IMG/VR virus record: IMGVR_UViG_3300027712_000018
Reading direction: 5' to 3' (one strand)
DNA length: 64,000 nucleotides
From: a virus
Shown here: piece by piece, positions 3,039 through 61,325 of the stretch
Layout: every line of letters begins with the position of its first letter
Numbering within the stretch: position 1 is the first letter of the stretch
Made by a program: the position numbers and the translations under genes
The notes under the pieces: generated by a model
Told to the model about the DNA's origin: nothing
The model's database searches: none
What the model saw: the letters and a program-made list of their open reading frames with translations, nothing else

Positions 3039-3040
3039 TG

Positions 3041-3880: not shown

Positions 3881-3897
3881 TCACTCCTATAATAAAA

Positions 3898-3973
3898 TGG
3901 TGCTGCCACGAGGACTTGAACCCCGCACCTGATGCTTACAAGGCAACTGCTCTACCAGATGAGCTATGACAGC
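3898..3973 (-). tRNA. tRNA-Thr(UGU)
   Basis: cloverleaf, loop CT-TGT-AA, encoded CCA. Confidence 0.93.
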
Positions 3974-3982
3974 AAGAATTCT

Positions 3983-4056
3983 TGGAGCGGGTGAGGGGAA
4001 TCGAACCCCTATCTTTAGATTGGAAATCTAAGGTCTTACCTTTACACAACACCCGC
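3983..4056 (-). tRNA. tRNA-Gly(UCC)
   Basis: TTAGA-TTTCCAA-TCTAA arm, CCA end. Confidence 0.93.
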
Positions 4057-4103
4057 ATGAATATGGTCCAGTTATTAAGGGAACTGGCAAACCTTATTGT
4101 TTA

Positions 4104-4184
4104 TTACTTCAAAGCAGCCTTAGCATACATATTGATTTCCATGCCGCAAGCAACTTCTGCAACTTTAGGTGTGTTCCAAGCCAT
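4104..4184 (-). CDS. pqqA: pyrroloquinoline quinone precursor peptide PqqA (26 aa, MAWNTPKVAEVACGMEINMYAKAALK)
   Basis: hand-translated; W-x-x-P N-terminus and E-x-x-x-Y core; AAGGAG RBS; TATAAATA at 4253-4260. Confidence 0.88.
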   Translation of the reverse strand: MAWNTPKVAEVACGMEINMYAKAALK

Positions 4185-4255
4185 ATTATAGTCTCCTTGT
4201 TAGTGTTGGACCAGTTATTTAAATTATTAAGGGAACTGACAACCCTTCGTTTTAT

Positions 4256-4717
4256 TTATACAGGTAATTCTGCCCACTGTTGAATTTTTTGTTTCAAAAC
4301 AGCAGTTGCTTCGTGTTTGTTTTTTTCACGATCCCAAACCCAATCGCCGGATGGAAGGGGTTGACCATACTTGACAACCATAGCAATTACACGAGGTAAG
4401 ACCATTAGATTGAAAGTTCTTTCATTATCCGGATTACGCTTTTGTTCGACTGTTTCATAAGGTACGCCAGCAATGAAGGCACGAGCAAGAAACGTAGCAC
4501 GATTCTCATTGCGAACATCCCACTTACGGTGGTGATTCAGTGAATGATACGCATTGAACGCTTTATCATCCCAACGAGGATACATACCATTGTTTCCAGC
4601 AGCATGCCATTGTTTCAATCCCCACTGATATTGTTTAAGTTGCTTACGCTCCTCAAAACGAATGATACGAGCTTCTTCAGAAAGGTGTTTAGATTTTACT
4701 TTAAGTTCTACAGACAT
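4256..4717 (-). CDS. hypothetical phage protein downstream of an amber-containing uORF
   Basis: 153 aa ORF; its TAGGAG RBS lies in a hairpin arm. Confidence 0.75.
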   Translation of the reverse strand: MSVELKVKSKHLSEEARIIRFEERKQLKQYQWGLKQWHAAGNNGMYPRWDDKAFNAYHSLNHHRKWDVRNENRATFLARAFIAGVPYETVEQKRNPDNERTFNLMVLPRVIAMVVKYGQPLPSGDWVWDREKNKHEATAVLKQKIQQWAELPV

Positions 4718-4812
4718 TTTATTCTCCTAAATTGATTTCAAATTGTTTATATTGAAAGTTCAATTTAGGGTGGACCAGTAATCTACGAGTTATCGCTCAT
4801 TGTAGTTCTCCA
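4715..4812 (-). promoter_or_regulatory. amber read-through leader: uORF MSDNS(TAG)ITGPP(TAA) at 4765-4800 plus anti-RBS hairpin
   Basis: GGAG RBS before the uORF; CCTAAATTGA pairs with TCAATTTAGG, covering the downstream SD. Confidence 0.6.
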
Positions 4813-4823
4813 TGTTGTTGTAG

Positions 4824-4956
4824 TGGTATCCAGCCTTGACATCTGCACATCCTGAGAAGGAATTTATCGGTTTTACCAGCAGATACAATGTCACAAATAT
4901 AAGATGCTCAAGTTGTCTCGTTTACTGTGCTTGAGTATAGCTTATAAAGGCTGAAT
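4824..4956 (-). ncRNA. orphan structured RNA ending in CCA (about 133 nt)
   Basis: terminal stem ATTCAGCCTT/AAGGCTGGAT followed by ACCA; two internal arms. Confidence 0.5.
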
Positions 4957-4959
4957 TAG

Positions 4960-5034
4960 TGGTGGTCCTAGTGGGGTTCGAACCCACGTCCAAGCGTTTT
5001 AGGGACGCCCGCATTACCTTTATGCTATAGAACC
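4960..5034 (-). tRNA. tRNA-Sup(CUA), amber suppressor
   Basis: GGCGT-CC CTA AA-ACGCT anticodon arm (C33), canonical T arm, CCA end. Confidence 0.85.
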
Positions 5035-5042
5035 GTATTTAA

Positions 5043-5111
5043 CAGGATCGTTTTTGTCCGCTAAGACATCCATTGCATTGATTTAGCGTTTTTGTTTGCT
5101 GAACCGATCCT
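5043..5111 (-). ncRNA. Y-RNA-like small RNA, copy 1
   Basis: AGGATCGGTTCAGCAA...CGATCCTG terminal stem; near-identical copy at 8559-8625. Confidence 0.6.
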
Positions 5112-5117
5112 AAATTT

Positions 5118-5192
5118 TGGTCAGGGTGACAAGGATTGAACTTGCGGCTTCTTCATTCCAAGTGAAGCACTCTACCACTGAGCTACACCCTG
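5118..5192 (-). tRNA. tRNA-Pro(UGG)
   Basis: CTTCA-CTTGGAA-TGAAG arm. Confidence 0.93.
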
Positions 5193-5198
5193 ATGGTG

Positions 5199-5288
5199 TT
5201 ATTGTGGAATGTTGGACACCGCAATATAATAAGCGAAAGGAACAGCGATAGTGCCGAACCAGCAGATTGCGATGATGAACTTTTCCAT
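5199..5288 (-). CDS. small membrane peptide (29 aa, MEKFIIAICWFG...)
   Basis: GGAGAG RBS; sigma70-type promoter directly upstream. Confidence 0.5.
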   Translation of the reverse strand: MEKFIIAICWFGTIAVPFAYYIAVSNIPQ

Positions 5289-5315
5289 GTCATTCTCTCC
5301 TTGACTTACTCTTAT

Positions 5316-5354
5316 GTTGTAACATAGATATTTTAGAATGTCAAGAACTATTTT
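5316..5354 (-). promoter_or_regulatory. sigma70-type phage promoter (AAAATAGTTCTTGACA family)
   Basis: TTGACA-17 nt-TACAAC; same upstream motif near 9082, 13291, 13619 and 13997. Confidence 0.6.
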
Positions 5355-5427
5355 GGCGAGGGTGCAGAGAGTCGAACTCTGGCTCTCAGTTTTGGAGACT
5401 GATGTGCTACCGTAACACTTCACCGAC
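5354..5427 (-). tRNA. tRNA-Trp(CCA)
   Basis: TCAGT-CTCCAAA-ACTGA arm; two acceptor-stem mismatches. Confidence 0.85.
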
Positions 5428-5429
5428 AT

Positions 5430-5505
5430 TGGCTCCCTAGTGTGGGATCGAACCACAGACAGGCGAGTTAACAGCTCGCTGCTCTACCATCTGAGCTACT
5501 AGGAA
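5430..5505 (-). tRNA. tRNA-Asn(GUU)
   Basis: GCGAG-CTGTTAA-CTCGC arm. Confidence 0.93.
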
Positions 5506-5511
5506 ACATTC

Positions 5512-6027
5512 TTAAGATACTTTAACCAAGGTTCTCATATGAACCCTTTGGATGTTATAACCACCCGCCACGATTGTGCGAATGTTAACCCGATGTTCTC
5601 CGACTTTGAAACTGCCTTCAAAACCATCACTGACATGTTTCAGTTCAAAGTCTGGAATCTCTTCAATGTTCTTCTTACGCAGGGCCGCAATGATCTGATT
5701 GTCACGCTTGTCAATCAACGACAGAGTATTCTTCATCATGTTATCAAGACCACCTTGAAGGCCACGACTAGCGATCAACTTCATCATCGCTTCGCTGCCC
5801 CAATACTTGATCACTTCAGCACCACGAATTTTATAGTCTTCGTATTTGGTGTGTTCCGCATCCCACTTTTTCATGTGGTCTTGGAAACCTTCGATTTTGG
5901 CCTTAGCCCAAGCCTGATCTTTCTTAATCACATCGGCGTCCAACTCTGCAAACGCTTTACTAATTTTTTCTTTCATCTCTTTCTCAGGGGAGACGGCTTC
6001 GGAGAGGTAGTTTTTGAAAGACAACAT
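5512..6027 (-). CDS. hypothetical protein, possible internal head protein
   Basis: N-terminus MLSFKNYLSEA resembles a T4 capsid-targeting sequence. Confidence 0.6.
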   Translation of the reverse strand: MLSFKNYLSEAVSPEKEMKEKISKAFAELDADVIKKDQAWAKAKIEGFQDHMKKWDAEHTKYEDYKIRGAEVIKYWGSEAMMKLIASRGLQGGLDNMMKNTLSLIDKRDNQIIAALRKKNIEEIPDFELKHVSDGFEGSFKVGEHRVNIRTIVAGGYNIQRVHMRTLVKVS

Positions 6028-6092
6028 TGGTTTGGTCCTCGACGTTACTTGTATACATTACTATATATACAAACGCTTGTCAAGCATTATTT

Positions 6093-6180
6093 TGGCGGAT
6101 CGTGTGGGAATCGAACCCACTCTACCCTTACAGGTAGTACGGTTTAGCAAACCGCTGCCTTACCAGCCGGCCCACGATCC
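6093..6180 (-). tRNA. tRNA-Ser(GCU)
   Basis: long variable arm, loop TT-GCT-AA, G73. Confidence 0.92.
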
Positions 6181-7253
6181 AAATCTTTACCTACATATTC
6201 GTGACTGTAACACACTCTGTCAGCGTGTTTAGCCAGATATTCTTGCGGCATCTTACGACTATAACCACTATCGTTTGGGTGTTTGTAGTCGCTTCTTGAG
6301 ATGCCGTTCTTACTTGTAGGAACCCAAAGATTAGACGCATTACGATACTCGCCTAGTCTTGGGTGAGCAGTCTTCGTAAAGAACCTCTTGCCCTCTCTAA
6401 GGTGGAGTTCTCCTAGTGCTTCTGTCATCCTTGCACCTATACCTAAGCCCTGAAACTCAGGTAGTACAACCGTTCTGTGACCCCGCCACGCCTTGTTTAG
6501 AGTGCCACTAGGCATCGCTAGACTTGAAAGAAATCCGACAGGTCTGTTGTTCCATGTGACAATCCAGCATCGTGAACCTTTATTGATGTTCCCGTCAAGA
6601 TAGTGATGGTCGCCGAACAATGACCAAGCTTCGGTTGAACAAGGTAGGAGTTCCAAAACGATGGCTGGCCTTTCTAACCTCCTTGTGGACATCTTACCAG
6701 TTTGAGTATCGAATACCCAATCTGGACGCAGCCACTCAATGATGTCATAGTGACAGGATGAAAAGACGATCTTCTTAAGACCCTTGGCGTGAATGTAACG
6801 GTGGACCGCATTCGAACAAGACTTGGCGACATCACGGTCAATAACAGAAGTGAACTCATCCACCACCACATCATTGTCTAGTTGTCTAGCCAAACGAGCA
6901 CGAAACTGTTCACCATTAGATAACACGTGGTAAGGACGAAGCCAACTTGGAATACTGTTGAACCCTACCGCACCAAGACGTTCTTGCGCTTGTTTGGCGT
7001 TTTCAAAATGAGATGCAACGCACTGATCAGGATTCCACTCTGGTTCCTTTTCAAAACCAAATTCCTTGAGCAGAGTACTCTTGCCAGATCCCGAAGGACC
7101 GACGATCAAGCCAATGCTGAAGTCTTTGAGAGTGGTTTCTCTATCAATTGGACTGATAGTAGGTGGAACAAACTCAGTAGTGCCATCAAACTTGTAGTCG
7201 AACATCTTACTGATTTCAGCAGTGATATCGTCTTGTCTAACGGTTGACTTCAT
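6144..7253 (-). CDS. ABC-type ATPase fused to a GNAT acetyltransferase
   Basis: GPSGSGKST Walker A, LSNGEQ signature, VVVDEF Walker B, VVLPEFQGLGIG acetyl-CoA motif. Confidence 0.85.
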   Translation of the reverse strand: MKSTVRQDDITAEISKMFDYKFDGTTEFVPPTISPIDRETTLKDFSIGLIVGPSGSGKSTLLKEFGFEKEPEWNPDQCVASHFENAKQAQERLGAVGFNSIPSWLRPYHVLSNGEQFRARLARQLDNDVVVDEFTSVIDRDVAKSCSNAVHRYIHAKGLKKIVFSSCHYDIIEWLRPDWVFDTQTGKMSTRRLERPAIVLELLPCSTEAWSLFGDHHYLDGNINKGSRCWIVTWNNRPVGFLSSLAMPSGTLNKAWRGHRTVVLPEFQGLGIGARMTEALGELHLREGKRFFTKTAHPRLGEYRNASNLWVPTSKNGISRSDYKHPNDSGYSRKMPQEYLAKHADRVCYSHEYVGKDLDRGPAGKAAVC

Positions 7254-7266
7254 GATCTATCCAGTG

Positions 7267-7539
7267 TTACAACAAACTTAAAGCATAATACATATGATCT
7301 TCAAGTTCTAGGGGGAAATCGTTAGCAGAACTTTTATTGACAAATCTTCCCGTACCATAGAAATATTCAATTAAAATGGTGCAAGCTTTGACATAACGTT
7401 GGCATTCTTTGCGATTAAGTTTAGACAACAAAGGATTGCCTTCTTGCTGTGCATTTATTTTACGCAAATCACGAATCAAATTAAGTTGTTCATCAGTCCA
7501 CGACGACCTCATAAGAGGATCATAGTATATACTTTGCAT
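7267..7539 (-). CDS. hypothetical protein
   Basis: 90 aa ORF with AAGGA RBS. Confidence 0.55.
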   Translation of the reverse strand: MQSIYYDPLMRSSWTDEQLNLIRDLRKINAQQEGNPLLSKLNRKECQRYVKACTILIEYFYGTGRFVNKSSANDFPLELEDHMYYALSLL

Positions 7540-7553
7540 AATCAGTTCCTTAT

Positions 7554-7648
7554 TGGTATTGCTAGGGGTTTCGGACGCTCCCTATTACGCAGCACTACGC
7601 TACTCGACTTACGCCTAAGTCTGGGTCTGTTAGTTCCGTTCTAGCAAT
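7554..7648 (-). ncRNA. orphan tRNA-like RNA ending in CCA (about 95 nt)
   Basis: ATTGCTAG/CTAGCAAT acceptor-like stem followed by ACCA; interior is not a cloverleaf. Confidence 0.5.
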
Positions 7649-7651
7649 TTT

Positions 7652-7728
7652 TGGTGCCTTTGGTGGGATTCGAACCCACACTGAACGGCTTCTAAGACCG
7701 TTATCTCTACCAGTTGGACTACAAAGGC
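7652..7728 (-). tRNA. tRNA-Leu(UAG), short variable loop
   Basis: loop CT-TAG-AA. Confidence 0.9.
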
Positions 7729-7734
7729 ATTATT

Positions 7735-7808
7735 TGGTAGTTCGTGAGGGAATCGAACCCCCGTAGTCGCCGTGTAAAGACGAAGTTCTACCATTGAACT
7801 AACGAACC
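7735..7808 (-). tRNA. tRNA-Val(UAC)
   Basis: loop TT-TAC-AC. Confidence 0.92.
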
Positions 7809-7814
7809 ATAATT

Positions 7815-7888
7815 TGGCGATCTATACGGGACTCGAACCCGTCTTCCTAGATAGACAGTCTAGGGCCTTCCCTGACGGCAAATAGACC
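7815..7888 (-). tRNA. tRNA-Asp(GUC)
   Basis: CTAGA-CTGTCTA-TCTAG arm, G73. Confidence 0.88.
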
Positions 7889-7893
7889 AATTT

Positions 7894-8451
7894 TTATTTC
7901 TTAAACGTTGCAGTTACAGTCTTACCGCCAGCGATGTCGTTGATCGTTGACATGAAACCGCCAAGCGCACTTGTAGAGTTATTCAGACTACTCACAAGGC
8001 TGTCTGCAGCATTCTTAGCAGAAGTCAAAGATGCAATCGTTTCCGCTGCCGCACCACCCGCCACCGCCGCAGCAAGATCACTCGCCGCTGTCGCCGCATC
8101 CGTAACCGCATTAGTTATCGCCGATGTTAAAGTGGACTCGATATTAGATGCCAGCCCAGCGAGTTTACTAGAGATGCCACCCAACAGATCCGCAGTTCCG
8201 ATATGTTGCAACTTCTTAAAGGTATCATACCCAGGAATTAAATTCAACATCTTTTTCACCAAAGTCTGACCCGCCGCACTCATATTGTATGATACAAGAG
8301 AAGGTGCAGCAGATCCCGCCGTGTATGGGTTTGCAGCTAGTGCAATAACCAATCGTGAGATGCCAGCATAATGTGCTACTAGATCGTCGTCAACTCTATC
8401 CAATCTTGCATGGAGAGCTTGCAGTTGCGTATTTAAATTATTATCAGCCAT
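7894..8451 (-). CDS. hypothetical Ala/Ser-rich helical protein
   Basis: 185 aa ORF with AAGGAG RBS. Confidence 0.65.
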   Translation of the reverse strand: MADNNLNTQLQALHARLDRVDDDLVAHYAGISRLVIALAANPYTAGSAAPSLVSYNMSAAGQTLVKKMLNLIPGYDTFKKLQHIGTADLLGGISSKLAGLASNIESTLTSAITNAVTDAATAASDLAAAVAGGAAAETIASLTSAKNAADSLVSSLNNSTSALGGFMSTINDIAGGKTVTATFKK

Positions 8452-8476
8452 AATATATCACTCCTTTAAACACGTT

Positions 8477-8550
8477 TGGTGGACCGTATGGGAATCGAAC
8501 CCATTGACAGCGATCTTGCAAGGATCACCCGTAACCCCATTACACAGCCC
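8477..8550 (-). tRNA. tRNA-Ala(UGC)
   Basis: loop CT-TGC-AA and G3:U70 pair. Confidence 0.88.
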
Positions 8551-8558
8551 GTATTAGA

Positions 8559-8625
8559 CAGGATCGTTTTGTCCGCTAAGACATCATTGCATTGATTTAG
8601 CGTTTTGGTTTGCTGAACCGATCCT
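8559..8625 (-). ncRNA. Y-RNA-like small RNA, copy 2
   Basis: near-identical to 5043-5111. Confidence 0.6.
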
Positions 8626-8631
8626 TTAACT

Positions 8632-8721
8632 TGGCGGAGAGCGTGAGATTCGAACTCACGGAACGTTTCACCGTTCGGCAGTTTTCAAGACTGCAGGCAT
8701 AAACCACTCGCCCAGCTCTCC
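8632..8721 (-). tRNA. tRNA-Ser(UGA)
   Basis: long variable arm, loop CT-TGA-AA. Confidence 0.93.
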
Positions 8722-8727
8722 GTATTT

Positions 8728-8805
8728 TGGTTGCGGTGGGTAGGAATCGAACCTACGTATTCGGCTTATGAGACCGTGCTGGAACCACCTCCAGTCTACC
8801 CCGCA
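8728..8805 (-). tRNA. tRNA-Met(CAU), initiator-like
   Basis: GCGGGG...CCGCAACCA ends as in fMet tRNA; CAT anticodon. Confidence 0.85.
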
Positions 8806-8808
8806 AAA

Positions 8809-8900
8809 CTCTGTTTTTATCTACACTGGCTAACTTCGGATCCTTGGCCAAGGCGTTCTAGTAGTTAGCAACTCACCCGTCAGTGTAGATAAAAACAGAG
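8809..8900 (-). ncRNA. structured RNA closed by a 20-bp perfect inverted repeat
   Basis: CTCTGTTTTTATCTACACTG / CAGTGTAGATAAAAACAGAG. Confidence 0.45.
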
Positions 8901-9017
8901 ACAATCAACTCTGCTTACACACGCACCCCATCTAGTGGACTAATCTCAGCAAAGTGTTTTGGGCGGCCTACCCTCATTTGCGGGGCGCATGTGTAAACAG
9001 AATCGCTTCTGTTTATC

Positions 9018-9097
9018 TTTTCAAAGAACACGAAGGTCTTTTCGTTCCCTTCATATACTATATATACGTTCTGTAACCGAATGTCAAGAACTATTTT
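9018..9097 (-). promoter_or_regulatory. sigma70 promoter followed by a hairpin and a boxA-like antitermination site
   Basis: TTGACA-17 nt-TATAGT, GAAGG...CCTTC hairpin, TGTTCTTTGAAAA. Confidence 0.55.
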
Positions 9098-9101
9098 GTG
9101 T

Positions 9102-9221
9102 CAGGATCAACTTTTTGCTACGTGTGCTACCATTACACTAATGCCTCTTACGAGAGCACCTAGGATTCGAACCTAGACTTCGATCTTTCAAGGATATGCA
9201 ATTTGTTGCTGTAATGATCCT
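9102..9221 (-). ncRNA. YrlA-like Y RNA with a permuted tRNA-like domain
   Basis: AGGATCA...TGATCCTG stem enclosing T arm (CTAGG-TTCGAAT-CCTAG), closed acceptor-like stem and D arm (GTGTAATGGTAGCAC); directly downstream of the TROVE-like gene. Confidence 0.7.
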
Positions 9222-9241
9222 ATATTAGTAGCCACGACCCA

Positions 9242-10672
9242 TTACAGGTCGTAGCGAGAGTTCATCAGAGTCTTCAACATGACGTTGTAAGGAGTGTAAT
9301 CCTCAAGGTCATTTGCAAGAACACTCTTCATCACTGAAGGAGAGAAACCAGAAACAAGCGCAGTACCGTTCTTGTCGAACTTAACAGGAGTGTTACCGTT
9401 TTCCTTACCTTGCATTGACAAGTTCCAGAAGACGATCTTAGGAACATTGTAACCCGCTTCCTTGTACTTACGCTTGATCATCTGCACTGCAGTGTCATCG
9501 TACTTGGTGCAAGAGTCAAATTGCATGTCCGAAAGGATCAGAAGCATGTCTGGCATATCTTCCTGAGAAACTTTACCCTTGACAGCAACTTTGAGTATTT
9601 CATCAAATGCTGCATGAAGGTTAGTACCCATCTGCCAGTCTGCCTTTGACATCTGTTCCATCTTCTGAGACAGAGTGCCTTTCACGTATTCCATCTTTGG
9701 CTTCGAAGAGAAGGTCAGGAATACATCCTTGAAGACGCCAGTGTTCTTATCGGCACAGTAAAGACCAAGGGAAACAGCAATGTCGATTGGTTGCAATTGG
9801 CTGGCTGAGGTGTACCACAACGAACCCATAGAAGCTGAAACGTCTACCATAGGCAGAACCTTCGCATCACCGATATAGTTAGGCAGAGCCTTCCATTGTT
9901 CATCGGCGACCGCTTTGTTACCCTTGACTACAGACTTCACGACATCATACGGATATACCGCACCAGCGTTGATCTTAACCTTTGGGTCACGTTCTGCTTG
10001 AGGCTTCTTCAGTTCCGCAATGTAGGCAGAGTAGGACTCTTTTGCATTACGACCGAAAGCCTTTTGGTAACGAGCAGATGCAACAGAAGGAACATGCGAG
10101 AAGTTGATGGCATCCCATTCCTTTGCACACATCTGAGTTTCAACGACATTGGTCAAACCGACAATCAACTTACGGTATGCCTTTGGAGACAAACCAAGGT
10201 AGCGAGTCAGTTCAACGGCGACAGGGCCCTTACGTGGCATCCACTTTGCTGCCAGACCATTCTTCGCCTGTAGAGCCTCTGCGATCAAGGCGAACGCCTG
10301 ATTGCGGTTGATAGGATCTTTGTAGGTAAAGAGGTCATCCCAACGACCAAGTGCAGGGATTTTGTGCATCAACTTACCAGCCAGAGTTGGGTCGGTGGAC
10401 TCTAGTGCTGATAGCAGATTACGGAAGGTAGCACGTTCGCCCGCACCCTCACGAATGTCACGAGCCCACTGCAGCATACGCAGAGTGAGGTCGGCATTCT
10501 CAACGAAAGAGGTTACGAATTGTTTAGTGATATCGGTGCCACGGGCAGAACCAATAAGACCGAAGAGATCCAAAACAGGAGATGCCGAAGTGGCACGAGC
10601 CTTCATACCATTTTCGGTTCTTTTAATAACTTTCCCAGATTGATTTTTCACCGCTTCAACGAATGAAGTCAT
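9242..10672 (-). CDS. TROVE/Ro60-like RNA-binding protein with C-terminal vWA domain (DUF2828 type)
   Basis: TENG, RDIREGAGER, GRWDD, AAKWMPR, MIDAS DVSASM, SDMQFD, IVFWNL, SGFS motifs. Confidence 0.85.
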   Translation of the reverse strand: MTSFVEAVKNQSGKVIKRTENGMKARATSASPVLDLFGLIGSARGTDITKQFVTSFVENADLTLRMLQWARDIREGAGERATFRNLLSALESTDPTLAGKLMHKIPALGRWDDLFTYKDPINRNQAFALIAEALQAKNGLAAKWMPRKGPVAVELTRYLGLSPKAYRKLIVGLTNVVETQMCAKEWDAINFSHVPSVASARYQKAFGRNAKESYSAYIAELKKPQAERDPKVKINAGAVYPYDVVKSVVKGNKAVADEQWKALPNYIGDAKVLPMVDVSASMGSLWYTSASQLQPIDIAVSLGLYCADKNTGVFKDVFLTFSSKPKMEYVKGTLSQKMEQMSKADWQMGTNLHAAFDEILKVAVKGKVSQEDMPDMLLILSDMQFDSCTKYDDTAVQMIKRKYKEAGYNVPKIVFWNLSMQGKENGNTPVKFDKNGTALVSGFSPSVMKSVLANDLEDYTPYNVMLKTLMNSRYDL

Positions 10673-10673
10673 T

Positions 10674-11345
10674 TTATGTATCCTTTGCTGTTTTCAATCT
10701 TATCTTTGCTTCGCTAGAAGTATGTTGCACATACTCCCAATCTTTTTTGTCGCCTTCTTGACTCCAAAACTTTTCTTTAGATATTGTAACACGTTTACCA
10801 AATTTGTCAACAACTATTACGCTACCAACAAAATTATGAGTTCCCTTTTCAATTTTATTTCTATTGTTCTCAGAAGCCATTTTTGAACCCGCTTCTCCAG
10901 AGAATAGATTAGTTCCATTTTCAACTTGCTTCCGACTTCTTATTTTGGAAGACTCAGACATTTTTCTTCTTGTTTGGTCGTCAAAGTCGTTATAACATTT
11001 GCCATATCTGCTTTGACGTATTTTTTCTTTGTGTTCTTCACAAAATTTTATACCTTTAGGACTACCATCTAACCCATTTTCTTCTTTTAAGTTTGCCCAT
11101 TCTTCTGAATTTGCAATGTTGTTTTTTATTGAAAATTCTATCGCAAAAGATGAACACAAAATTTCATTGTCAAACAAACCTAAAATTTCTGTAGTGAAGT
11201 CATTACCGTGTTTTTTAAGGTGTTTTTTCCAGTAAACACCAGACCCTTTATATTTGAATGGATCTTTCCGTGTTGTTTTACCAAAGTATTTTAAACCAGT
11301 TTTGTTATGAGTTTTTACATAAAGATAGATCATTATTACCTCCAC
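10674..11345 (-). CDS. GIY-YIG (Seg-like) homing endonuclease
   Basis: IYLYVKTH..TGLKYFGKT, YKGSG, NUMOD3-like HKEKIRQS; AT-rich relative to flanks. Confidence 0.8.
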   Translation of the reverse strand: MEVIMIYLYVKTHNKTGLKYFGKTTRKDPFKYKGSGVYWKKHLKKHGNDFTTEILGLFDNEILCSSFAIEFSIKNNIANSEEWANLKEENGLDGSPKGIKFCEEHKEKIRQSRYGKCYNDFDDQTRRKMSESSKIRSRKQVENGTNLFSGEAGSKMASENNRNKIEKGTHNFVGSVIVVDKFGKRVTISKEKFWSQEGDKKDWEYVQHTSSEAKIRLKTAKDT

Positions 11346-11389
11346 AATCTATTTTTATTTATTATATTATTGTTTTCAGTACGTGTATT

Positions 11390-11465
11390 CAGGATCGTGC
11401 CTTTCGGCTTTGTTTTCATTACAAGTGAAATGCTCTATGAGCTGTTTTGTTGCAGTAACGATCCT
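11390..11465 (-). ncRNA. Y-RNA-like small RNA, copy 4
   Basis: AGGATCGTTACTGCAA...CGATCCTG; internal anticodon-like hairpin TTTCA-CTTGTAA-TGAAA. Confidence 0.6.
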
Positions 11466-11513
11466 TGATAGATTAATAGTAACACCTTCATTCGTAGATG
11501 TCAACTATTATTT

Positions 11514-11588
11514 TGGAGCGGGTGGTGGGATTTGAACCCACGACAGCTTCGTTGGCAACGAAGTACTCTACCCCTGAGTTACACCCGC
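11514..11588 (-). tRNA. tRNA-Gly(GCC)
   Basis: CTTCG-TTGCCAA-CGAAG arm. Confidence 0.93.
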
Positions 11589-11597
11589 AATTCTGAT

Positions 11598-11673
11598 TGG
11601 CACCGTGCATGGGCTTCGATCCCATCCCATATCAGTCACAGTGAGATATGCTTCCATTTACACTTGTCACGGC
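11598..11673 (-). tRNA. atypical tRNA-His(GUG), possibly degenerate
   Basis: loop CT-GTG-AC; bulged acceptor stem; T loop ATCGAAG. Confidence 0.6.
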
Positions 11674-11676
11674 ATT

Positions 11677-11865
11677 CTAGTTTTGCTTACCAACTACAAG
11701 TGAATCATCTACTACATTGAGACTATCCAAATATACCCATACTCCAGGACCTGGGTATGTCGGATCCCATTTTACTAATGCACCAGTATCTTCTATTCGG
11801 ATGATCTGACCCACCCAACCAGTATACTCGTTGCCATACCTCGTTACTTTATCGCCGACTTTCAT
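11677..11865 (-). CDS. small SH3/KOW-like hypothetical protein
   Basis: MKVGDKV...G.I......VKW pattern; GGAG RBS. Confidence 0.6.
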   Translation of the reverse strand: MKVGDKVTRYGNEYTGWVGQIIRIEDTGALVKWDPTYPGPGVWVYLDSLNVVDDSLVVGKQN

Positions 11866-11886
11866 ATGTATCTCCACATTAAGAAT

Positions 11887-11961
11887 TGGTACTGGATAGT
11901 GGGATCGAACCACGTCCACCTCAGTCACAGTGAGGGATGCAACCATTACACCTTATCCAGC
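11887..11961 (-). tRNA. tRNA-His(GUG), alphaproteobacterial type
   Basis: CCTCA-CTGTGAC-TGAGG arm; A73 and no encoded G-1. Confidence 0.88.
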
Positions 11962-12067
11962 ATTATAGCGCCACCAAGTTATCGTCTATTAATAAAAAGT
12001 CTGGGTAGCTACTCCCGCTTTATTACATACCATCACAGTATTTGTCTCGAATAACTCAGTTACTACT

Positions 12068-12148
12068 TGGAGCCCCAGGAGGGATTCGAACCCGCATCTT
12101 CCATCCATTATCCTGCTCTTCGTTCGTAGCGAAGGGGAATACTGAGGC
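12068..12148 (-). tRNA. non-canonical tRNA-Arg(ACG) lacking a D arm
   Basis: acceptor GCCTCAG/CTGGGGC, CTTCG-CTACGAA-CGAAG arm, T arm, long variable region. Confidence 0.65.
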
Positions 12149-12152
12149 GTAT

Positions 12153-12226
12153 TGGTGCTGCTAGGAAGAATCGAACTTCCGTCTCATCCTTACCAAAGAT
12201 GAATAATACCTTTATACTATAGCAGC
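12153..12226 (-). tRNA. tRNA-Thr(GGU)
   Basis: loop TT-GGT-AA. Confidence 0.9.
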
Positions 12227-12233
12227 GTTGTTT

Positions 12234-12307
12234 TGGTACTCTCAAGAGGATTCGAGCCTCTTCTTCCTCCATGTCGGGGAGGCGTCCTACCATTAGACGA
12301 TGAGAGT
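12234..12307 (-). tRNA. tRNA-Val(GAC)
   Basis: CCTCC-CCGACAT-GGAGG arm (C33). Confidence 0.8.
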
Positions 12308-12312
12308 ATAAT

Positions 12313-12386
12313 TGGTGCTCCCAACGGGACTCGAACCCGTTTCAACTGATTGAAAGTCAGCTATCCTACCCGTAGACGATGGGAGC
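12313..12386 (-). tRNA. tRNA-Glu(UUC)
   Basis: loop CT-TTC-AA. Confidence 0.92.
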
Positions 12387-12392
12387 ATGATA

Positions 12393-12483
12393 TGGTGGGG
12401 AATGGACGGATTCGAACCTCTTGCCGTTTCCGGGACAGGGTTACAGCCTGCCGCTAGGACCACCTAGCCTTATTGCACTCCCC
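12393..12483 (-). tRNA. tRNA-Tyr(GUA)
   Basis: loop CT-GTA-AC, variable arm; extra nucleotides before the D arm. Confidence 0.8.
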
Positions 12484-12488
12484 AAACT

Positions 12489-12563
12489 TGGTAGTCCTAG
12501 GGTGAATTGAACACCCGACCTAAGAGTTATCAGCTCTTCGCTCTACCACTGAGCTATAGGACC
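12489..12563 (-). tRNA. tRNA-Ile(GAU)
   Basis: AAGAG-CTGATAA-CTCTT arm. Confidence 0.93.
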
Positions 12564-12652
12564 AAACTCTATTGTTGCGCTTCTACGAGAGGCGTTAAGA
12601 GAAAATTTCAGCCAGAAATTCTTTTAATGTGCAGCTGGATCTGACACAGTTC

Positions 12653-12727
12653 TGGTGTCGAGGGGCAGAATCGAACTGCCTACGCCTTGCTCTTCAGGCA
12701 AGCGCTCTACCATTGAGCTACCAAGAC
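12653..12727 (-). tRNA. tRNA-Phe(GAA)
   Basis: CTTGC-CTGAAGA-GCAAG arm. Confidence 0.9.
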
Positions 12728-12733
12728 ATCATT

Positions 12734-12810
12734 TGGTGTGCCGAGTGGGAGTCGAACCCACGACCTTGAGATTAAGAGTCCCCTGCTCTAGACCACTGAG
12801 CTACCGGCGC
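12734..12810 (-). tRNA. tRNA-Lys(CUU)
   Basis: loop CT-CTT-AA. Confidence 0.92.
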
Positions 12811-12904
12811 ATTACTTAGAAGATACACTACATGTTGCAGAGGTTTATGCTGCTCCACAACTACTTACCAACAGCGTCTGGGCGGTAGTGTATCATCAAA
12901 GTAA

Positions 12905-12981
12905 TGGTGAATCGGGTGGGGTTCGAACCCACGTTGACACGGATTAAAAGTCCATCGCTAAACCAACTCAGCTACCGATCC
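12905..12981 (-). tRNA. tRNA-Lys(UUU)
   Basis: loop CT-TTT-AA. Confidence 0.92.
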
Positions 12982-13113
12982 ATTCTTCAAAGCCATCTTA
13001 TCGTCACGGCGTTGAACCTTCTTTGGCTTCCCGTGAGCACCACAAACCTTGAAGCGCATATGCTCCACGAAAGGATTGCGTTGTTTGGGAAGTTCCTTAT
13101 GTTTTCGTTTCAT
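12958..13113 (-). CDS. small basic protein (51 aa, MKRKHKELPKQRNPFVEHMRFKVCGAHGKPKKVQRR...) with its stop inside tRNA-Lys
   Basis: hand-translated; AAGGAG RBS; TAG lies in the tRNA D arm. Confidence 0.6.
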   Translation of the reverse strand: MKRKHKELPKQRNPFVEHMRFKVCGAHGKPKKVQRRDDKMALKNGSVAELV

Positions 13114-13306
13114 TTTCCTTCTCCTTGAAGATCACGGTCATCTTACCGTTAGACCACTGTTTCAACACGAACATATTGTATTTCCAAACACCATACTTAC
13201 GATGTACACTGTTTAGGTAACTTAGATTTCCTGAGTGGATCATGTCATTTCCTCTTCCGACATTGTTTTTATAACACAAACAAAACACAATGTCAAGAAC
13301 TATTTT

Positions 13307-13381
13307 TGGATGGGGAGGTAGGATTCGAACCTACGGTACACGCATTCAAAGTGCGATGCCTTACCACTTGGCCACTCCCCA
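13307..13381 (-). tRNA. tRNA-Gln(UUG)
   Basis: U1-A72 pair, loop CT-TTG-AA. Confidence 0.93.
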
Positions 13382-13386
13382 ACAAC

Positions 13387-13492
13387 TCTGTTTACAACTG
13401 TTATGTACGTTCATCAACCAACTGAGCTGCTCGGGGATTTTCCCCCAAGGATGGACTCGAACCACCGACCTCACATAACATGTGAAAACAGA
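13387..13492 (-). ncRNA. circularly permuted tRNA-like RNA (YrlA-like architecture)
   Basis: T arm GGTGG-TTCGAGT-CCATC, closed acceptor CTTGGGGG/TCCCCGAG, D-arm-like GCTCAGTTGG, long closing stem. Confidence 0.6.
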
Positions 13493-13544
13493 ATCATCTG
13501 TTTCCAGTTCCGTCATCGGGTAACCCCTAGGAACAGTTTCTAAA

Positions 13545-13634
13545 TTTTGAAAGAGCAAGGGGAGATTGATGTCATCTCTTCGTCCCCACATCCTCACCAT
13601 ACATCAAACAAAAACGTATGTCAAGAACTATTTT
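13545..13634 (-). promoter_or_regulatory. sigma70 promoter followed by a hairpin and a boxA-like site
   Basis: TTGACA-17 nt-TATGGT, then TGCTCTTTCAAAA. Confidence 0.55.
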
Positions 13635-13706
13635 TGGTGGTGCCAGATGGACTCGAACCATCTCAACGGGCTTATGAGACCCATGTCCGCCCCATGCGGT
13701 GTCACC
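13635..13706 (-). tRNA. tRNA(CAU), Met or Ile2, short D arm
   Basis: loop CT-CAT-AA, canonical T arm. Confidence 0.75.
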
Positions 13707-13712
13707 ATAACT

Positions 13713-13790
13713 TGGAGGTTGAGGAGAGATTCGAACTCTCGGCTTTACGGATTTGCAATCCGCCCCCTTGGACCACTCGAGCACTCAACC
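13713..13790 (-). tRNA. tRNA-Cys(GCA)
   Basis: loop TT-GCA-AA, U73. Confidence 0.92.
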
Positions 13791-13795
13791 GTATT

Positions 13796-13826
13796 AAAAA
13801 ACCCTCCTAGACTTTCGTCTGGAGGG
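13796..13826 (-). terminator. attenuator terminator upstream of the tRNA array
   Basis: CCCTCCAGAC-GAAA-GTCTAGGAGGG followed by TTTTTT. Confidence 0.8.
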
Positions 13827-13855
13827 CTCTTTGATAAGGTATTTTAGAAATATCC

Positions 13856-13942
13856 CTATATAGAACCCCCACGCATACGAATATACTCGCCGGTAAAGAC
13901 CGAGCGCTTCGCATTCATTGGTGACTGTAGATGGCAGAGCAT
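13856..13942 (-). CDS. attenuator leader peptide MLCHLQSPMNAKRSVFTGEYIRMRGGSI
   Basis: hand-translated; AAAGGA RBS; 18 different amino acids; overlaps antiterminator arm GGGGGTTCT. Confidence 0.7.
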   Translation of the reverse strand: MLCHLQSPMNAKRSVFTGEYIRMRGGSI

Positions 13943-14011
13943 TTAGGGGAGTTCCTTTGTTCGTTGTTACTTATATTTATACTAGTTTGGTCGTGATGTC
14001 AAGAACTATTT

Positions 14012-14458
14012 TCAAGAAATGAAACTTTTTAGTTGCCAGTGCATTTTCTCATGAAAATCAATGCGGTCTTCTAGGAAGTTCACGATGCCGTACTTCTTTG
14101 CAGCAGCGGCGATGTCGTGGGCTACGTAGAGTTCCTTGATCATGATTTCGTTGTCAGCATATAGTTTTGAGAACATTCCACTTGCTGATGGCACGTTAGT
14201 CTCGTCAGCGATCTTGGTTAGGTCTGCGAACCGTGCCAACGATCCTGGAACGAACGTGTCTAGGGTGCGATTGTGTTCTGCATACGAATCGACTGATTCC
14301 CACACAGCTTCATAGAAGTCACCAAAGAAGTCATGGTATTCGGAGAAGTTTGGGCCAGTTACGTTCCAGTGAAAGTTGTGGGTCTTCAGATACAACGAGA
14401 ACGCTGTAGCTTGAAGCACCTTGAGTTGTTCAATAAGTTTTTCCATAATAGTCCTCAT
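14012..14458 (-). CDS. dps: Dps / ferritin-like DNA protection protein
   Basis: KTHNFHWNVTGPNF..YH..F, D..AE, HEKMHWQL motifs. Confidence 0.92.
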   Translation of the reverse strand: MRTIMEKLIEQLKVLQATAFSLYLKTHNFHWNVTGPNFSEYHDFFGDFYEAVWESVDSYAEHNRTLDTFVPGSLARFADLTKIADETNVPSASGMFSKLYADNEIMIKELYVAHDIAAAAKKYGIVNFLEDRIDFHEKMHWQLKSFIS

Positions 14459-14482
14459 GTTTCTATATGGTTATTTATAAAA

Positions 14483-14623
14483 TGGTACTCCCGATAGGAC
14501 TCGAACCCCTGACCTAGGCGTTATGTAACAATGGTAGTTCCCCAGAGACTCGAACTCTGACCTGAAGCGTTATGAGCGCTTTGTGCTGACCTTTACACCA
14601 GAGAACCACTGAGCTACAGGAGC
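14483..14623 (-). pseudogene. disrupted tRNA(CAU) whose two halves flank the nested tRNA at 14532-14607
   Basis: 5' part GCTCCTGTAGCTCAGTGG and 3' part CATAACGCCTAGGTC...CGGGAGTACCA form a matching acceptor stem. Confidence 0.65.
14532..14607 (-). tRNA. tRNA(CAU), Ile2 or Met
   Basis: AAGCG-CTCATAA-CGCTT arm. Confidence 0.88.
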
Positions 14624-14624
14624 A

Positions 14625-14822
14625 TTAAGCTGCTATCGAAACATCCCTAAACGTGTATTGGTGATAATCAACCACAATACCATCAAGTACATCTGATACT
14701 TCTTTTGCTTGTTTGACGTTACTAAAGGTAAGTGGTATTATGTCCACTGACTTGTACAAACCTTTTCCGATAAAAACAATTTGGTTCACCAGTTCGTTGT
14801 TACGTTCAATAGCATAAGTCAT
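14625..14822 (-). CDS. hypothetical protein
   Basis: 65 aa ORF with AAGGAG RBS. Confidence 0.6.
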   Translation of the reverse strand: MTYAIERNNELVNQIVFIGKGLYKSVDIIPLTFSNVKQAKEVSDVLDGIVVDYHQYTFRDVSIAA

Positions 14823-14865
14823 ATCGTCACTCCTTGTTGGGGGCTCGATAGTATTTATGGTAGAA

Positions 14866-14959
14866 TGGTAGTCCCATCCGGATTCGAACCGGAGACGCTC
14901 TCTAATCTGGAGACGATGCGAGGTATAAGCTCGGTGTTTTACCGCTAAACTATGGGACT
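14866..14959 (-). tRNA. tRNA-Ile(UAU) with a long variable arm
   Basis: loop CT-TAT-AC; extra arm of about 24 nt. Confidence 0.78.
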
Positions 14960-15139
14960 AAAATATTATTGTCTCTTTTTGTTGTTTAGTTCCGTAATGC
15001 GATTAGAGATCCACTCAGTGGTGGCAACCCAGCTCGCATCTTGTTGGTCAATTTTGGTAAGATTTAACTTACTCAATGCGATAGTCAATCCTGCAAGTTC
15101 GGCGTACTCTGTACTAGTCATTTAAACCTCTTTGAAGAT

Positions 15140-15215
15140 TGGTGCCCATGGTCGGACTCGAACCGACACTGTGAAGATTTTAAGTCTCCTGACTCTACCT
15201 TTGGCCTACATGGGC
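15140..15215 (-). tRNA. tRNA-Leu(UAA), short variable loop
   Basis: loop CT-TAA-AA. Confidence 0.9.
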
Positions 15216-15221
15216 GATGTT

Positions 15222-15298
15222 TGGTGCTCCCAGAAGGACTCGAACCCTCAACCTGCGGAGTAGAAATCCGTTGCTCTGTCCAGTTGAGCTATGGAAGC
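15222..15298 (-). tRNA. tRNA-Arg(UCU)
   Basis: loop TT-TCT-AC, A20. Confidence 0.93.
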
Positions 15299-15335
15299 AT
15301 TATGACTTATTTATAGAAGTCTACGGTGTAGGTTT

Positions 15336-15539
15336 TCATTTGAACAACCCTACGATATTTGCTATAAGCAGAAAGATGACGACTATCATCAAGAACAAGA
15401 CAGCACCACCCCACAGTGGTGAAAGAACCCACCACCATGACCACGTGATGTATCCTGTCAACTTCAACGTGACGAACACGATAGTCAACAGACCAAAGAA
15501 GTTAGGTCCGACTTGGACGGATACGTTTTTATCAGCCAT
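15336..15539 (-). CDS. small two-helix membrane protein
   Basis: LLTIVFVTLKLTGYITWSWWWVLSPLW, a pattern typical of a phage membrane family. Confidence 0.75.
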   Translation of the reverse strand: MADKNVSVQVGPNFFGLLTIVFVTLKLTGYITWSWWWVLSPLWGGAVLFLMIVVIFLLIANIVGLFK

Positions 15540-15733
15540 CAGTTTAGCCTTTCATTCCAAAACATTTCAATTGCGTCTTCCATTACTGTATCTTTGGTAA
15601 ACCTGTTTGGGGGTGAAGAGAAGACCCATTCGATAATGGTTTTACGAATGTCCTTCTCGAACTCACTCTGAACATCGTATGCGTTGATACGAGCAATTTC
15701 ATCTACGACCATTTTATTCATTCTTCCACTCAC
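15539..15733 (-). CDS. hypothetical protein
   Basis: short ORF abutting its neighbours. Confidence 0.5.
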   Translation of the reverse strand: MSGRMNKMVVDEIARINAYDVQSEFEKDIRKTIIEWVFSSPPNRFTKDTVMEDAIEMFWNERLN

Positions 15734-15923
15734 GTCCTTCTTTCATTGCATCGGTTACGGCATGGATATAGTCTTTGTCTTCGTCATCCATGTGTGCCCA
15801 ATAGATATTCACTTGACTCAATAACATTTGCATAGCAGCAGGATCGTAGACGTGATCCTGCACCTCGACCAACGACTGAATTCTATTCATCAAACCTTCA
15901 ATGCGTTCCGCAATTATACTCAT
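15714..15923 (-). CDS. hypothetical protein
   Basis: 69 aa ORF in the gene run. Confidence 0.55.
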   Translation of the reverse strand: MSIIAERIEGLMNRIQSLVEVQDHVYDPAAMQMLLSQVNIYWAHMDDEDKDYIHAVTDAMKEGREWKNE

Positions 15924-16273
15924 GACATCATCTCGGCCTCCATTTGTTTTTCAATCTGACAGGCCAAGTCGTTATAACTCGCCGCTGTCATCTCAAGTTC
16001 TTTCATAATACGTTCCACCGATTGGTGAAACTTGACTCGATTAATCAAAGAGTCTAAGGTATGTTTGATTTCGAAAACACTCATCAGATCCATCATCATC
16101 TCCTAGCTTGGTTGACCTTCACCGATACCATCTTCTAGTTGACGATACAACTCTTCGATCATAAAGTCAAGATCTTTTTCTGCAAGGATTTCAAGAATCG
16201 TTTCAATCGACGGAGAAAACTCTACTTCCATGGTCACATCCTCTTGGGGGGTTACCTATCATATATAGTACGT

Positions 16274-16516
16274 TTACTCAGGAATGTCAAGATCTTTCGG
16301 AGCGAATTTTTCATGATTTTCTATCAACCACTCTTTCGACAAGATCATGACAACTGATTCGCCGACGACTTTGTCGTTTTCTATCTTACCAGCAATGAAA
16401 GCCAGACTGTAATGTTCAACGTCACCGCTGTCTACTCCATACACAACGTGATCTGGTTCATGGGGACGATAAGCCCTATAGATGGCAGTGAATGTGGGGT
16501 AGTGAGATTCAATCAT
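16274..16516 (-). CDS. hypothetical protein
   Basis: ATGA overlap with the upstream gene. Confidence 0.55.
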   Translation of the reverse strand: MIESHYPTFTAIYRAYRPHEPDHVVYGVDSGDVEHYSLAFIAGKIENDKVVGESVVMILSKEWLIENHEKFAPKDLDIPE

Positions 16517-16950
16517 AGAATATGACTACTTTCTTTTACAAACAAATGTTTCAGGTGGTTACGGTGGATCTTCCCACCCACGAAGGCGTTGTAATACTCA
16601 TCAGGCTTGAGTAGAACATCGTTGACTACCTGTTCCCGCATCTCGTAATAACTCATCTCAGCAGTGGTTTTACATAGTCTGATGATTCTACGTCTGAACC
16701 CAGATGGCCCATTCTCGACGACTAGTCTCTTGACTTCTTCGCTTGACCCGTAGTAGTCCATCCAATCTGATTCGGATATGACTTTGCGGTTGCGTTTCTG
16801 ACCTTTGAGGGGTTTGAGTGTACGAGTCGAACTCAGTTTCTTCTTACCGATATATTTCTTACCATTCGATAAGTCGGTAATCTCATAAACGAAGCCAGCA
16901 TGGCCTTCGATCATCTCACTCGTAAACTCGTTGTCTTCATAGTACCACAT
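16513..16950 (-). CDS. GIY-YIG family nuclease
   Basis: GFVYEIT...KKYIGKK...YYGSS...E...YYN pattern. Confidence 0.8.
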   Translation of the reverse strand: MWYYEDNEFTSEMIEGHAGFVYEITDLSNGKKYIGKKKLSSTRTLKPLKGQKRNRKVISESDWMDYYGSSEEVKRLVVENGPSGFRRRIIRLCKTTAEMSYYEMREQVVNDVLLKPDEYYNAFVGGKIHRNHLKHLFVKESSHIL

Positions 16951-16984
16951 AGAACATCTCCAATAGTTCTATGTATTTATTGAC

Positions 16985-17152
16985 TCAATAATCTTCGCCT
17001 AAGTAATCTTCGTCGTCTACGGTGATCATATCATCTAGATCGTCATCCGATAACAGTTCTGAACCACAGTGGGCGCAGAAGTACACAGGTTGATCTGATT
17101 CGATATAGAATTCGGCCTCACAAGAAGCGCAAGCAATTTCTTCTTTATTCAT
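16985..17152 (-). CDS. small zinc-ribbon protein with an acidic tail (55 aa)
   Basis: hand-translated: CASC...FCAHCG. Confidence 0.6.
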   Translation of the reverse strand: MNKEEIACASCEAEFYIESDQPVYFCAHCGSELLSDDDLDDMITVDDEDYLGEDY

Positions 17153-61257: not shown

Positions 61258-61325
61258 GTCATATCTCCTTATGAATTGTTAAGACTTCGAATTTATCTTC
61301 TTATCATATTTATAAAATTACAAAA

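Follow-up and report, generated by a model that had tools for sequence, protein, structure and literature searches.

A candidate leader-peptide transcription attenuator ahead of tRNA-Cys in the tRNA island of an uncultured T4-like phage

The stretch of viral DNA analysed here, 64,000 nt of the IMG/VR virus record IMGVR_UViG_3300027712_000018 (hereafter the window), carries within its tRNA island, on the minus strand at 13796-14010, a short unit that directly precedes a tRNA-Cys gene. The evidence presented below, which is wholly computational, suggests that in this unit an uncultured T4-like phage carries what is, on balance, probably a ribosome-mediated (leader-peptide) transcription attenuator. 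An earlier sequence-only reading had noted promoter signals, an AAAGGA motif, a 28-codon open reading frame (ORF) and a terminator ahead of tRNA-Cys, all of which are present in this place on the minus strand, and had recognized in them the geometry of attenuation. That geometry has since gained support: the unit is conserved in seven distinct versions, its ORF is under coding constraint in frame 0, the terminator has undergone compensatory changes, and pairing between the end of the ORF and the terminator is predicted in every lineage.

All parts of the unit lie on the minus strand and are described here in the order of transcription. The promoter module AATAGTTCTTGACA (13997-14010) includes an early-type -35 hexamer, TTGACA, at 14002-13997. 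It is followed, 15 nt past TTGACA, by TATAAATA (13974-13981), which corresponds to the T4-type late-promoter consensus and doubles as a -10-like element. The Shine–Dalgarno (SD)-like motif AAAGGA (13958-13953) belongs to segment A, GGAACUCCC (13947-13958), which can form a helix, P1, with the last codons of the leader ORF. The ORF itself (13856-13942) consists of 28 codons and TAG, encodes the peptide MLCHLQSPMNAKRSVFTGEYIRMRGGSI and contains the helices P2 (AUGCGAA:UUCGUAU) and P3 (CGC-U-CGGU / CUUU / ACCG-GCG) at 13875-13914. Its codons 25-27 constitute segment B, GGGGGUUCU (DNA GGGGGTTCT; 13862-13870), the putative 5' arm of an antiterminator with its partner at 13830-13822. Hairpin H (13834-13859), whose 5' arm AUAGGG includes the stop codon, is followed by a predicted intrinsic terminator (13796-13832) composed of an A-tract, the stem-loop CCCUCCAGAC-GAAA-GUCU-A-GGAGGG and U6; at the DNA level it reads CCCTCCAGAC-GAAA-GTCT-A-GGAGGG-T6 at 13830-13796. 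The 5' arm of the terminator is designated segment C and the 3' arm segment D. The tRNA-Cys(GCA) gene (13713-13790), recognized by both ARAGORN and Rfam, is the first gene that the terminator would gate; as read from the sequence, it begins 5 nt past the U-tract, a gap too small for a promoter, so that tRNA-Cys expression needs read-through.

In the proposed mechanism, the promoter, which mixes the early-type -35 with the late-type TATAAATA, would drive the synthesis of a leader of ~175 nt. A ribosome that keeps pace with RNA polymerase and stands at the stop codon would cover B and hairpin H, so that C would pair with D and transcription would terminate. A ribosome that is delayed before approximately codon 22, or is absent, would allow B:C to form around H; with the terminator thus blocked, the polymerase would continue into tRNA-Cys and the tRNA(CAU)-like gene behind it. 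The A:B helix could tie B to the SD/start region and may restore termination on untranslated RNA. Such a switch, the direction of which we infer from the predicted folds, would respond to slow decoding generally.

Conservation of the unit was assessed in relatives recovered through the neighbouring Dps/ferritin-like gene (14012-14458, minus strand; PF00210), which lies upstream of the element within the tRNA island. Relatives were sought in this manner because nucleotide and pattern searches gave almost nothing. In a blastn search of the region against 50,697 phage records, the matches comprised only the tRNAs and a 56-nt stretch of Dps; the element was absent from 54 IMG/VR loci anchored on Dps (Dps identity of at most 61 %); when IMG/VR was scanned for exact patterns of the terminator or of back-translated GEYIRMRGG, no match was returned; and a 17-mer of the terminator arm matched unrelated DNA only. 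A metagenome scan yielded one near-identical copy (locus L073) and one chance match. Starting from Dps homologues at 97-66 % identity, contigs were collected from assemblies of JGI, ENA and Logan, and seven distinct leader versions were distinguished among them: the window type (L055, L058, L059 and L073), L057, L074/L088, L075/L076, L077, L079 and L087. A far more divergent leader type was found in L084-L086 (the L085 type). All seven versions keep TTGACA-N15-TATAAATA, in which TTGACA and TATAAATA are invariant, as well as the SD-like motif, an ORF of 27-29 codons, hairpin H and the terminator. The L085 type stands directly after Dps, without a promoter of the TTGACA-TATAAATA type.

Wherever the contig reaches far enough, the L085 type included, tRNA-Cys is the first gene past the terminator. 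In L088, a homing-endonuclease gene is located between Dps and the leader promoter, and the leader and tRNA-Cys are still together. The genes behind tRNA-Cys are less constant: most loci have tRNA(CAU) next, L059 has an inserted tRNA-Trp and then tRNA(CAU), and in L087, which lacks the CAU tRNA at this place, a late promoter comes immediately after tRNA-Cys. When the leader alignment was used as an nhmmer query, neither the window nor any of the loci yielded a second copy, and the L085 type was not reached; the element occurs as a single copy in the window and per locus.

The leader ORF is likely translated, as judged from its pattern of sequence change. The peptides of the versions other than the window type (MYSFKSTFMQNTRPLVGEYIRMRGGSV, MYCHKQQQPMNYNRPVFTGEYIRVCEGSE, MCHCTQSVKQNMNPLFSGEYIRTCGGSV, MYCHKQSQTMNTNRPLFGGEYICARGGSE, MYCCKQSQTMNINRPLFGGEYIRVFGGSE and MYCHKQSQTMNTNRPLFGGEYIRARGGSE) share the invariant residues G-E-Y-I and G-S and have a poorly conserved N-terminal half; the L085-type peptide, MHTNMINRCEKFYNYAGGGRVC, is barely alignable. 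The ORF is open in all lineages, and insertions and deletions inside it are whole codons, unlike those in the untranslated region and the hairpin loops, which measure 1-2 nt. Frame 0 is free of stops in all lineages, whereas stops occur in frame +1 of every lineage and in frame +2 of all but the window. In an RNAcode-style test, in which BLOSUM similarity was compared with that obtained when an equal number of substitutions was randomly placed, frame-0 similarity exceeded this mutation-position null in most pairs (p from <0.002 to 0.09 with a protein-guided alignment). With a frame-blind nucleotide alignment, eight of nine pairs gave p values of 0.004-0.10 in frame 0 and one pair gave 0.26; only one of 36 tests in the control frames +1 and +2 reached p=0.04. 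An AAGGA or AAGGG motif is located 10-11 nt 5' of the AUG in all lineages, and the L085 type keeps both the SD-like motif and its distance. As a separate observation, the stop codon of the leader is TAG in the window, L057 and L075 and TAA in L074, L077, L079 and L087; read-through of TAG in the window would append three codons (GYF) ahead of a TAA within hairpin H.

The leader is predicted to fold far more stably than its shuffles (z=-4.1), and the folds calculated for each lineage agree on P1 (segment A with the last codons, B), on P2 and P3 in the ORF, on hairpin H and on the terminator. P2 and P3 are predicted in every lineage, and P3 exhibits compensatory changes at two pairs (GC in five rows and CG in four; GC in seven and AU in one). 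The outer stem of hairpin H is 100 % paired in 10 sequences, with the change from TAG to TAA converting a G-U pair to A-U; the inner stem is present in every lineage despite sequence differences, and the stop codon is always inside H, adjoining B. P1 is plausible but variable according to the predicted folds. It is present in the minimum free energy (MFE) fold of the window, its register varies among lineages, reaching a perfect 12-bp helix in L075, and, when the window register is imposed, only 59 % of positions are paired, with no conservation column by column; moreover, apart from L075 and the window, the 5' and 3' segments of one lineage do not consistently form a better helix with each other than with those of another.

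The terminator has a 10-bp GC-rich stem, a GAAA loop and U6, with a predicted stability of -20.7 kcal/mol in the window and -18 to -21 across lineages, and its stem has changed in a compensatory manner at three pairs. Only four strong canonical terminators, this one included, were identified on the coding strand in the 64 kb; it is the sole one in the tRNA island, and it matches the predicted strength of the few gene-end terminators of the phage. As the sequence-only reading had proposed, the last codons can pair with its 5' arm: the GGGGGUUCU:AGAGCCCUC pairing (B:C) comprises 9 bp and is predicted to contribute -15.0 kcal/mol in the window and -10 to -15 kcal/mol across lineages. Segment B reads GGGGGUUCU, GGAGGCUC or GAGGGUUC (codons GGN GGN UCN), and C consists of an A/G-rich run plus CCCUCC. 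When the 3' arm of the terminator is omitted, the MFE fold of every lineage places B on C around H, and the same pairing around H is predicted for the L085 type, with a different peptide and different arm sequences. B:C is paired in 91 % of alignment cells, compared with 39-61 % when the partner is slid, and it is stronger than the mean synonymous recoding in six of six lineages (fractions 0.01-0.24). With the ribosome modelled in folding as a 28-nt mask, B:C forms when the A site is at codon 3, 12 or 20 and disappears only when the ribosome stands at the stop codon, again in six of six lineages. The expectation that both sets of arms would covary in related T4-like phages was borne out for the terminator, with its three compensatory pairs; the B:C arms have undergone one-sided changes only.

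Several observations weigh against the attenuator reading. The B:C helix has no compensatory pair, and its conservation could be a by-product of sequence conservation and of the G-rich codons for Gly-Gly-Ser. The behaviour of untranslated RNA is hard to predict, since without a ribosome the equilibrium fold is B:C in four of six lineages, and the outcome hinges on whether A:B forms first. With respect to translation, variable sites in the 3' half of the ORF, counted by hand, are distributed over the codon positions only as 9:6:12; RNA helices lie over the conserved blocks of the peptide, and constraint at the RNA level could thus account for part of the coding signal; the SD spacing of 10-11 nt falls in the tail of the distribution for this phage, in which 6-8 nt is found for most genes; and the AUG of L075 is buried in a perfect 12-bp helix. 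Finally, geometry alone is no proof, because the attenuator-like leaders upstream of ilvB and leuA in Streptomyces coelicolor, when mutated, did not show the behaviour of classical attenuators (PMC1262725).

The alternative that survives best, which we nevertheless consider unlikely, is that the 27-29-residue peptide is itself the product of a micro-gene, that a constitutively leaky terminator scales down tRNA-Cys, and that the complementarity of B and C is incidental. The frame-specific constraint with its invariant residues, the possession of a promoter and a strong terminator of its own, and the one-sided changes in B:C would all be in keeping with such a gene, and a low constitutive output of tRNA-Cys would suit a phage in whose proteins Cys is the rarest residue (0.7 %). 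However, the peptide has no family in PHROGs, its N-terminal half is poorly conserved, and the SD motif is weakly placed and partly sequestered, which would be odd for a wanted product. Furthermore, the end of the ORF is complementary to the 5' arm of the terminator in all lineages, even in the L085 type with its differing sequences, and the stop codon always lies within hairpin H next to B.

That the leader is a non-coding structured RNA with an incidental ORF appears distinctly less probable still. It might be a small stable RNA released from a tRNA precursor, or it might act as a switch at the RNA level alone, with a ligand, a protein or a tRNA as the signal. Small stable RNAs are encoded in the tRNA region of T4, and, given how tRNAs are processed, an RNase P cut at tRNA-Cys would free the leader from read-through transcripts. 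The very stable fold, the conservation of P2, P3 and H with compensatory changes, the coincidence of the conserved peptide blocks with helices, the long SD spacing and the buried AUG of L075 are all compatible with this explanation. It does not account for the fact that frame 0 alone is open, with in-frame insertions and deletions and coding-type substitutions that have no parallel in the other frames, or for the fact that even the L085 type retains an SD-like motif at a conserved distance from the AUG. In addition, an Rfam scan of 3000-17000 at E values up to 1 assigned no family, T-box included, to 13796-14010.

The identity of the signal to which an attenuator of this kind would respond is a separate question. 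The sequence-only reading had proposed that the leader samples almost all of the tRNA pool. The observations on which it was based are accurate for the window copy: the first 21 codons encode 18 different residues (P=1.4e-4 given the residue composition of the phage proteins, with the 21-codon prefix length chosen after the fact), only one of 186 short ORFs in the window reaches this value, and 25 of the 28 codons are distinct. Selection for such sampling is not supported, as the excess is not maintained across homologous leaders. In the relatives, 21 codons encode 14-16 different residues, where the null is 12.6 +/- 1.4, and in total diversity all of them are somewhat above the null (15-18 vs 14.4). 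This excess was traced to one inherited, conserved, all-different block, R-P-L-F-x-G-E-Y-I-R. The variable N-terminal half is at expectation (8-10 different residues vs 8.5-9.5) and contains repeats (QQQ in one relative, N-x-N and T-x-x-T). Asp and Trp are never used in the leaders, and Ala occurs twice against 12 expected. A hand count of leader residues matched by the tRNA block down to 11514 (20 of 28 vs 61 % expected) was not significant.

A more specific candidate is provided by Cys, which accounts for 10 of 170 leader residues compared with 0.68 % in phage proteins, an 8.7-fold enrichment (P=3e-7, a value that, as with all P values given here, is optimistic because the lineages share ancestry). 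No other residue is as strongly enriched, the next highest values being those of Gln (2.1), Gly (1.9), Arg (1.9) and Met (1.7); among the gated tRNAs, a match with leader codons is thus confined to Cys and, weakly, Met. Cys codons are located at codons 2-4 in five of six lineages, including an N-terminal Cys-Cys in L079 and Cys-His-Cys in L075. Given this over-representation and position, the most specific signal that can be put forward as a candidate is a lack of charged tRNA-Cys. A ribosome stalled at these codons would hold the SD/start segment off B, itself covering part of segment A, and would leave B uncovered; B would then pair with the terminator arm, and tRNA-Cys would be transcribed. 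That Cys codons 2-4 report the supply of charged tRNA-Cys, such that the phage transcribes its own tRNA-Cys only when Cys decoding becomes limiting, is offered as a tentative proposal that may well prove wrong: Cys codons are missing from L057, those in the C-terminal part arise by CGU/UGU changes where the position pairs with G, and the enrichment reaches only P=0.02 against a random-ORF null.

The weakest of the explanations considered, and in our view a very improbable one, holds that selection has filled the leader with almost all amino acids, such that the phage tRNAs would be turned on whenever any tRNA is cleaved or in short supply; the diversity of the window copy, the slight overall excess in relatives and the masked folds, which leave the antiterminator free for a stall at any codon before ~22, are outweighed by the ordinary diversity of the variable half, the absence of Asp and Trp and the rarity of Ala, the gating of only two tRNAs before the next promoter and a location away from the head of the array.

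The last two of these points follow from the layout of the tRNA island. The sequence-only reading had placed the element in front of the tRNA array; instead, genes for tRNA-Arg, Leu, Ile(UAU) and Met lie upstream of it at 15298-14532 on the same strand, beyond Dps, and the element is therefore inside the array. The order from the leader terminator is Cys, CAU and Gln, and tRNA-Cys and the tRNA(CAU)-like gene (13638-13706; the second gated gene) are the only genes between this terminator and the next promoter, TTGACA-N17-TATGGT (13596-13624), which marks the end of the unit dependent on the leader promoter. This promoter is part of another copy of the leader's promoter module (13632-13596) downstream of the tRNA(CAU)-like gene. 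The latter gene scores 27.4 bits against the Rfam tRNA model, for which the threshold is 29, and is not called by ARAGORN in the window; its counterparts in L055, L057 and L059 are identified by ARAGORN as tRNA-Met(cat), and the otherwise near-identical L073 has two differences in the D and anticodon arms of this gene.

Further promoters are distributed over the island. The 14-mer AATAGTTCTTGACA, which comprises the -35 hexamer and an A/T-rich upstream part, has exact copies on the minus strand at 5339-5352, 9082-9095, 13291-13304, 13619-13632 and 13997-14010 and near copies at 10805 and 6078, all confined to the tRNA island. Internal promoters had indeed been noted near 13619, 13291, 9082 and 5339, and this repetition implies that the array is split into several promoter-headed units. 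The late-type motif TATAAATA occurs at 14 sites in the window, of which 13 are on the coding (minus) strand, compared with 2.6 expected on both strands, an excess that makes a T4-type late promoter plausible; the sites include 14472-14479, 15308-15315 and 61307-61314 on the minus strand. One copy is located ahead of Dps and another 10 nt ahead of the first tRNA (Arg-UCU). The composite of TTGACA and TATAAATA is found twice in the window, the leader promoter being one of the occurrences. A TTTAAT within the terminator was considered as a promoter for tRNA-Cys and rejected, as transcription would begin inside the tRNA. Two small ORFs (48-63 amino acids, and a Lys-rich one of 51 amino acids) are located behind promoter 13291, at 12958-13288 on the minus strand, and gene callers place ORFs of ~50 amino acids at the matching position in L055 and L057. 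As a second attenuator these ORFs were rejected, since they run into tRNA-Lys(UUU) without a terminator between.

The phage itself can be identified as a T4-like myovirus by its T4-type terminase, tail sheath, family-B DNA polymerase and ribonucleotide reductase. Its DNA polymerase is 53 % identical to that of Phage C48C1 and ~47 % identical to those of cyanophage S-T4 and the Methylophilales phage Melnitz, and no close relative was found among deposited phage genomes. Some additional features of the island were observed. Most Dps homologues have 144 amino acids, and translation of this gene therefore probably begins with the Met at 14446, not at 14458. The tRNA-Ile(UAU) gene at 14866-14959 (minus strand) measures 94 nt, which is unusually long for a class I tRNA, and may hold an insertion or an intron. 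The array also includes a tRNA with the anticodon CUA (amber suppressor type; 4960-5034, minus strand). In the relatives, homing-endonuclease genes (NUMOD3-type and SegE-like GIY-YIG) are dispersed in the tRNA islands, for example at L088:1915-2574 (on the other strand), L055/L056:588-1025 and L057:721-1134.

Phage tRNA genes are usually viewed as constitutive passengers of early or late transcription, and a literature search found no description of a leader-peptide attenuator before phage tRNA genes. If the attenuator reading is correct, the phage would gauge the decoding capacity of the infected cell and top up a tRNA on demand, by means of a compact element of ~210 bp with sigma70-type signals. 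This would bear on the question of why phages carry tRNAs, for which compensation of codon usage and a response to host shut-off or to tRNA-targeting defences may be set against each other.

Among known systems, T-box leaders recognize uncharged tRNA by direct binding and work without an ORF. As in these leaders and in the attenuators of synthetase genes, read-through into a gene of the translation apparatus would be set here by the decoding or charging of one amino acid; however, those systems control synthetases rather than tRNA genes, and the Rfam scan found no T-box match in the element. Leader-peptide attenuators have been predicted upstream of trpS and leuS in Streptomyces, and candidate Cys leader peptides have been proposed (PMC1262725). 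In mycobacteria, short polycysteine ORFs that respond to Cys are leaderless, contain runs of Cys codons, unmask the next gene's ribosome-binding site and control Cys metabolism (10.1101/834739). The candidate described here would similarly use Cys codons in a short ORF as a ribosome-pausing sensor that reshapes the downstream RNA, its link to Cys being hypothetical; in contrast to the mycobacterial ORFs, it has 0-3 Cys codons and would act through an intrinsic terminator, with a tRNA-Cys gene as its target.

The classical leader-peptide attenuators of amino-acid operons are trpL, hisL, pheL, leuL, thrL and ilvL of E. coli and Salmonella. The phage leader resembles them in having a short ORF on the same transcript and an intrinsic terminator just before the regulated gene, and in an upstream segment that is predicted to compete for the 5' arm of the terminator and would be masked once a ribosome reached the end of the ORF. 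As in trp and his, fast translation is predicted to result in termination and slow translation in read-through, and the trp system is also matched in that the less stable antiterminator (-15 kcal/mol for B:C) is synthesized ahead of the more stable terminator (-20.7 kcal/mol for C:D). Unlike the classical attenuators, the phage leader has no run of one regulatory codon, its Cys codons numbering 0-3 with at most two in tandem; its segment 1 comprises the SD/start region in place of the regulatory codons; the stop codon is overlapped by an additional hairpin; and the promoter combines early-type and late-type signals. The regulated genes also differ, being phage tRNA genes rather than biosynthetic ones, so that the element, if it operates as proposed, would add tRNA genes to the amino-acid and synthetase genes for which leader-peptide attenuation has been described or predicted.

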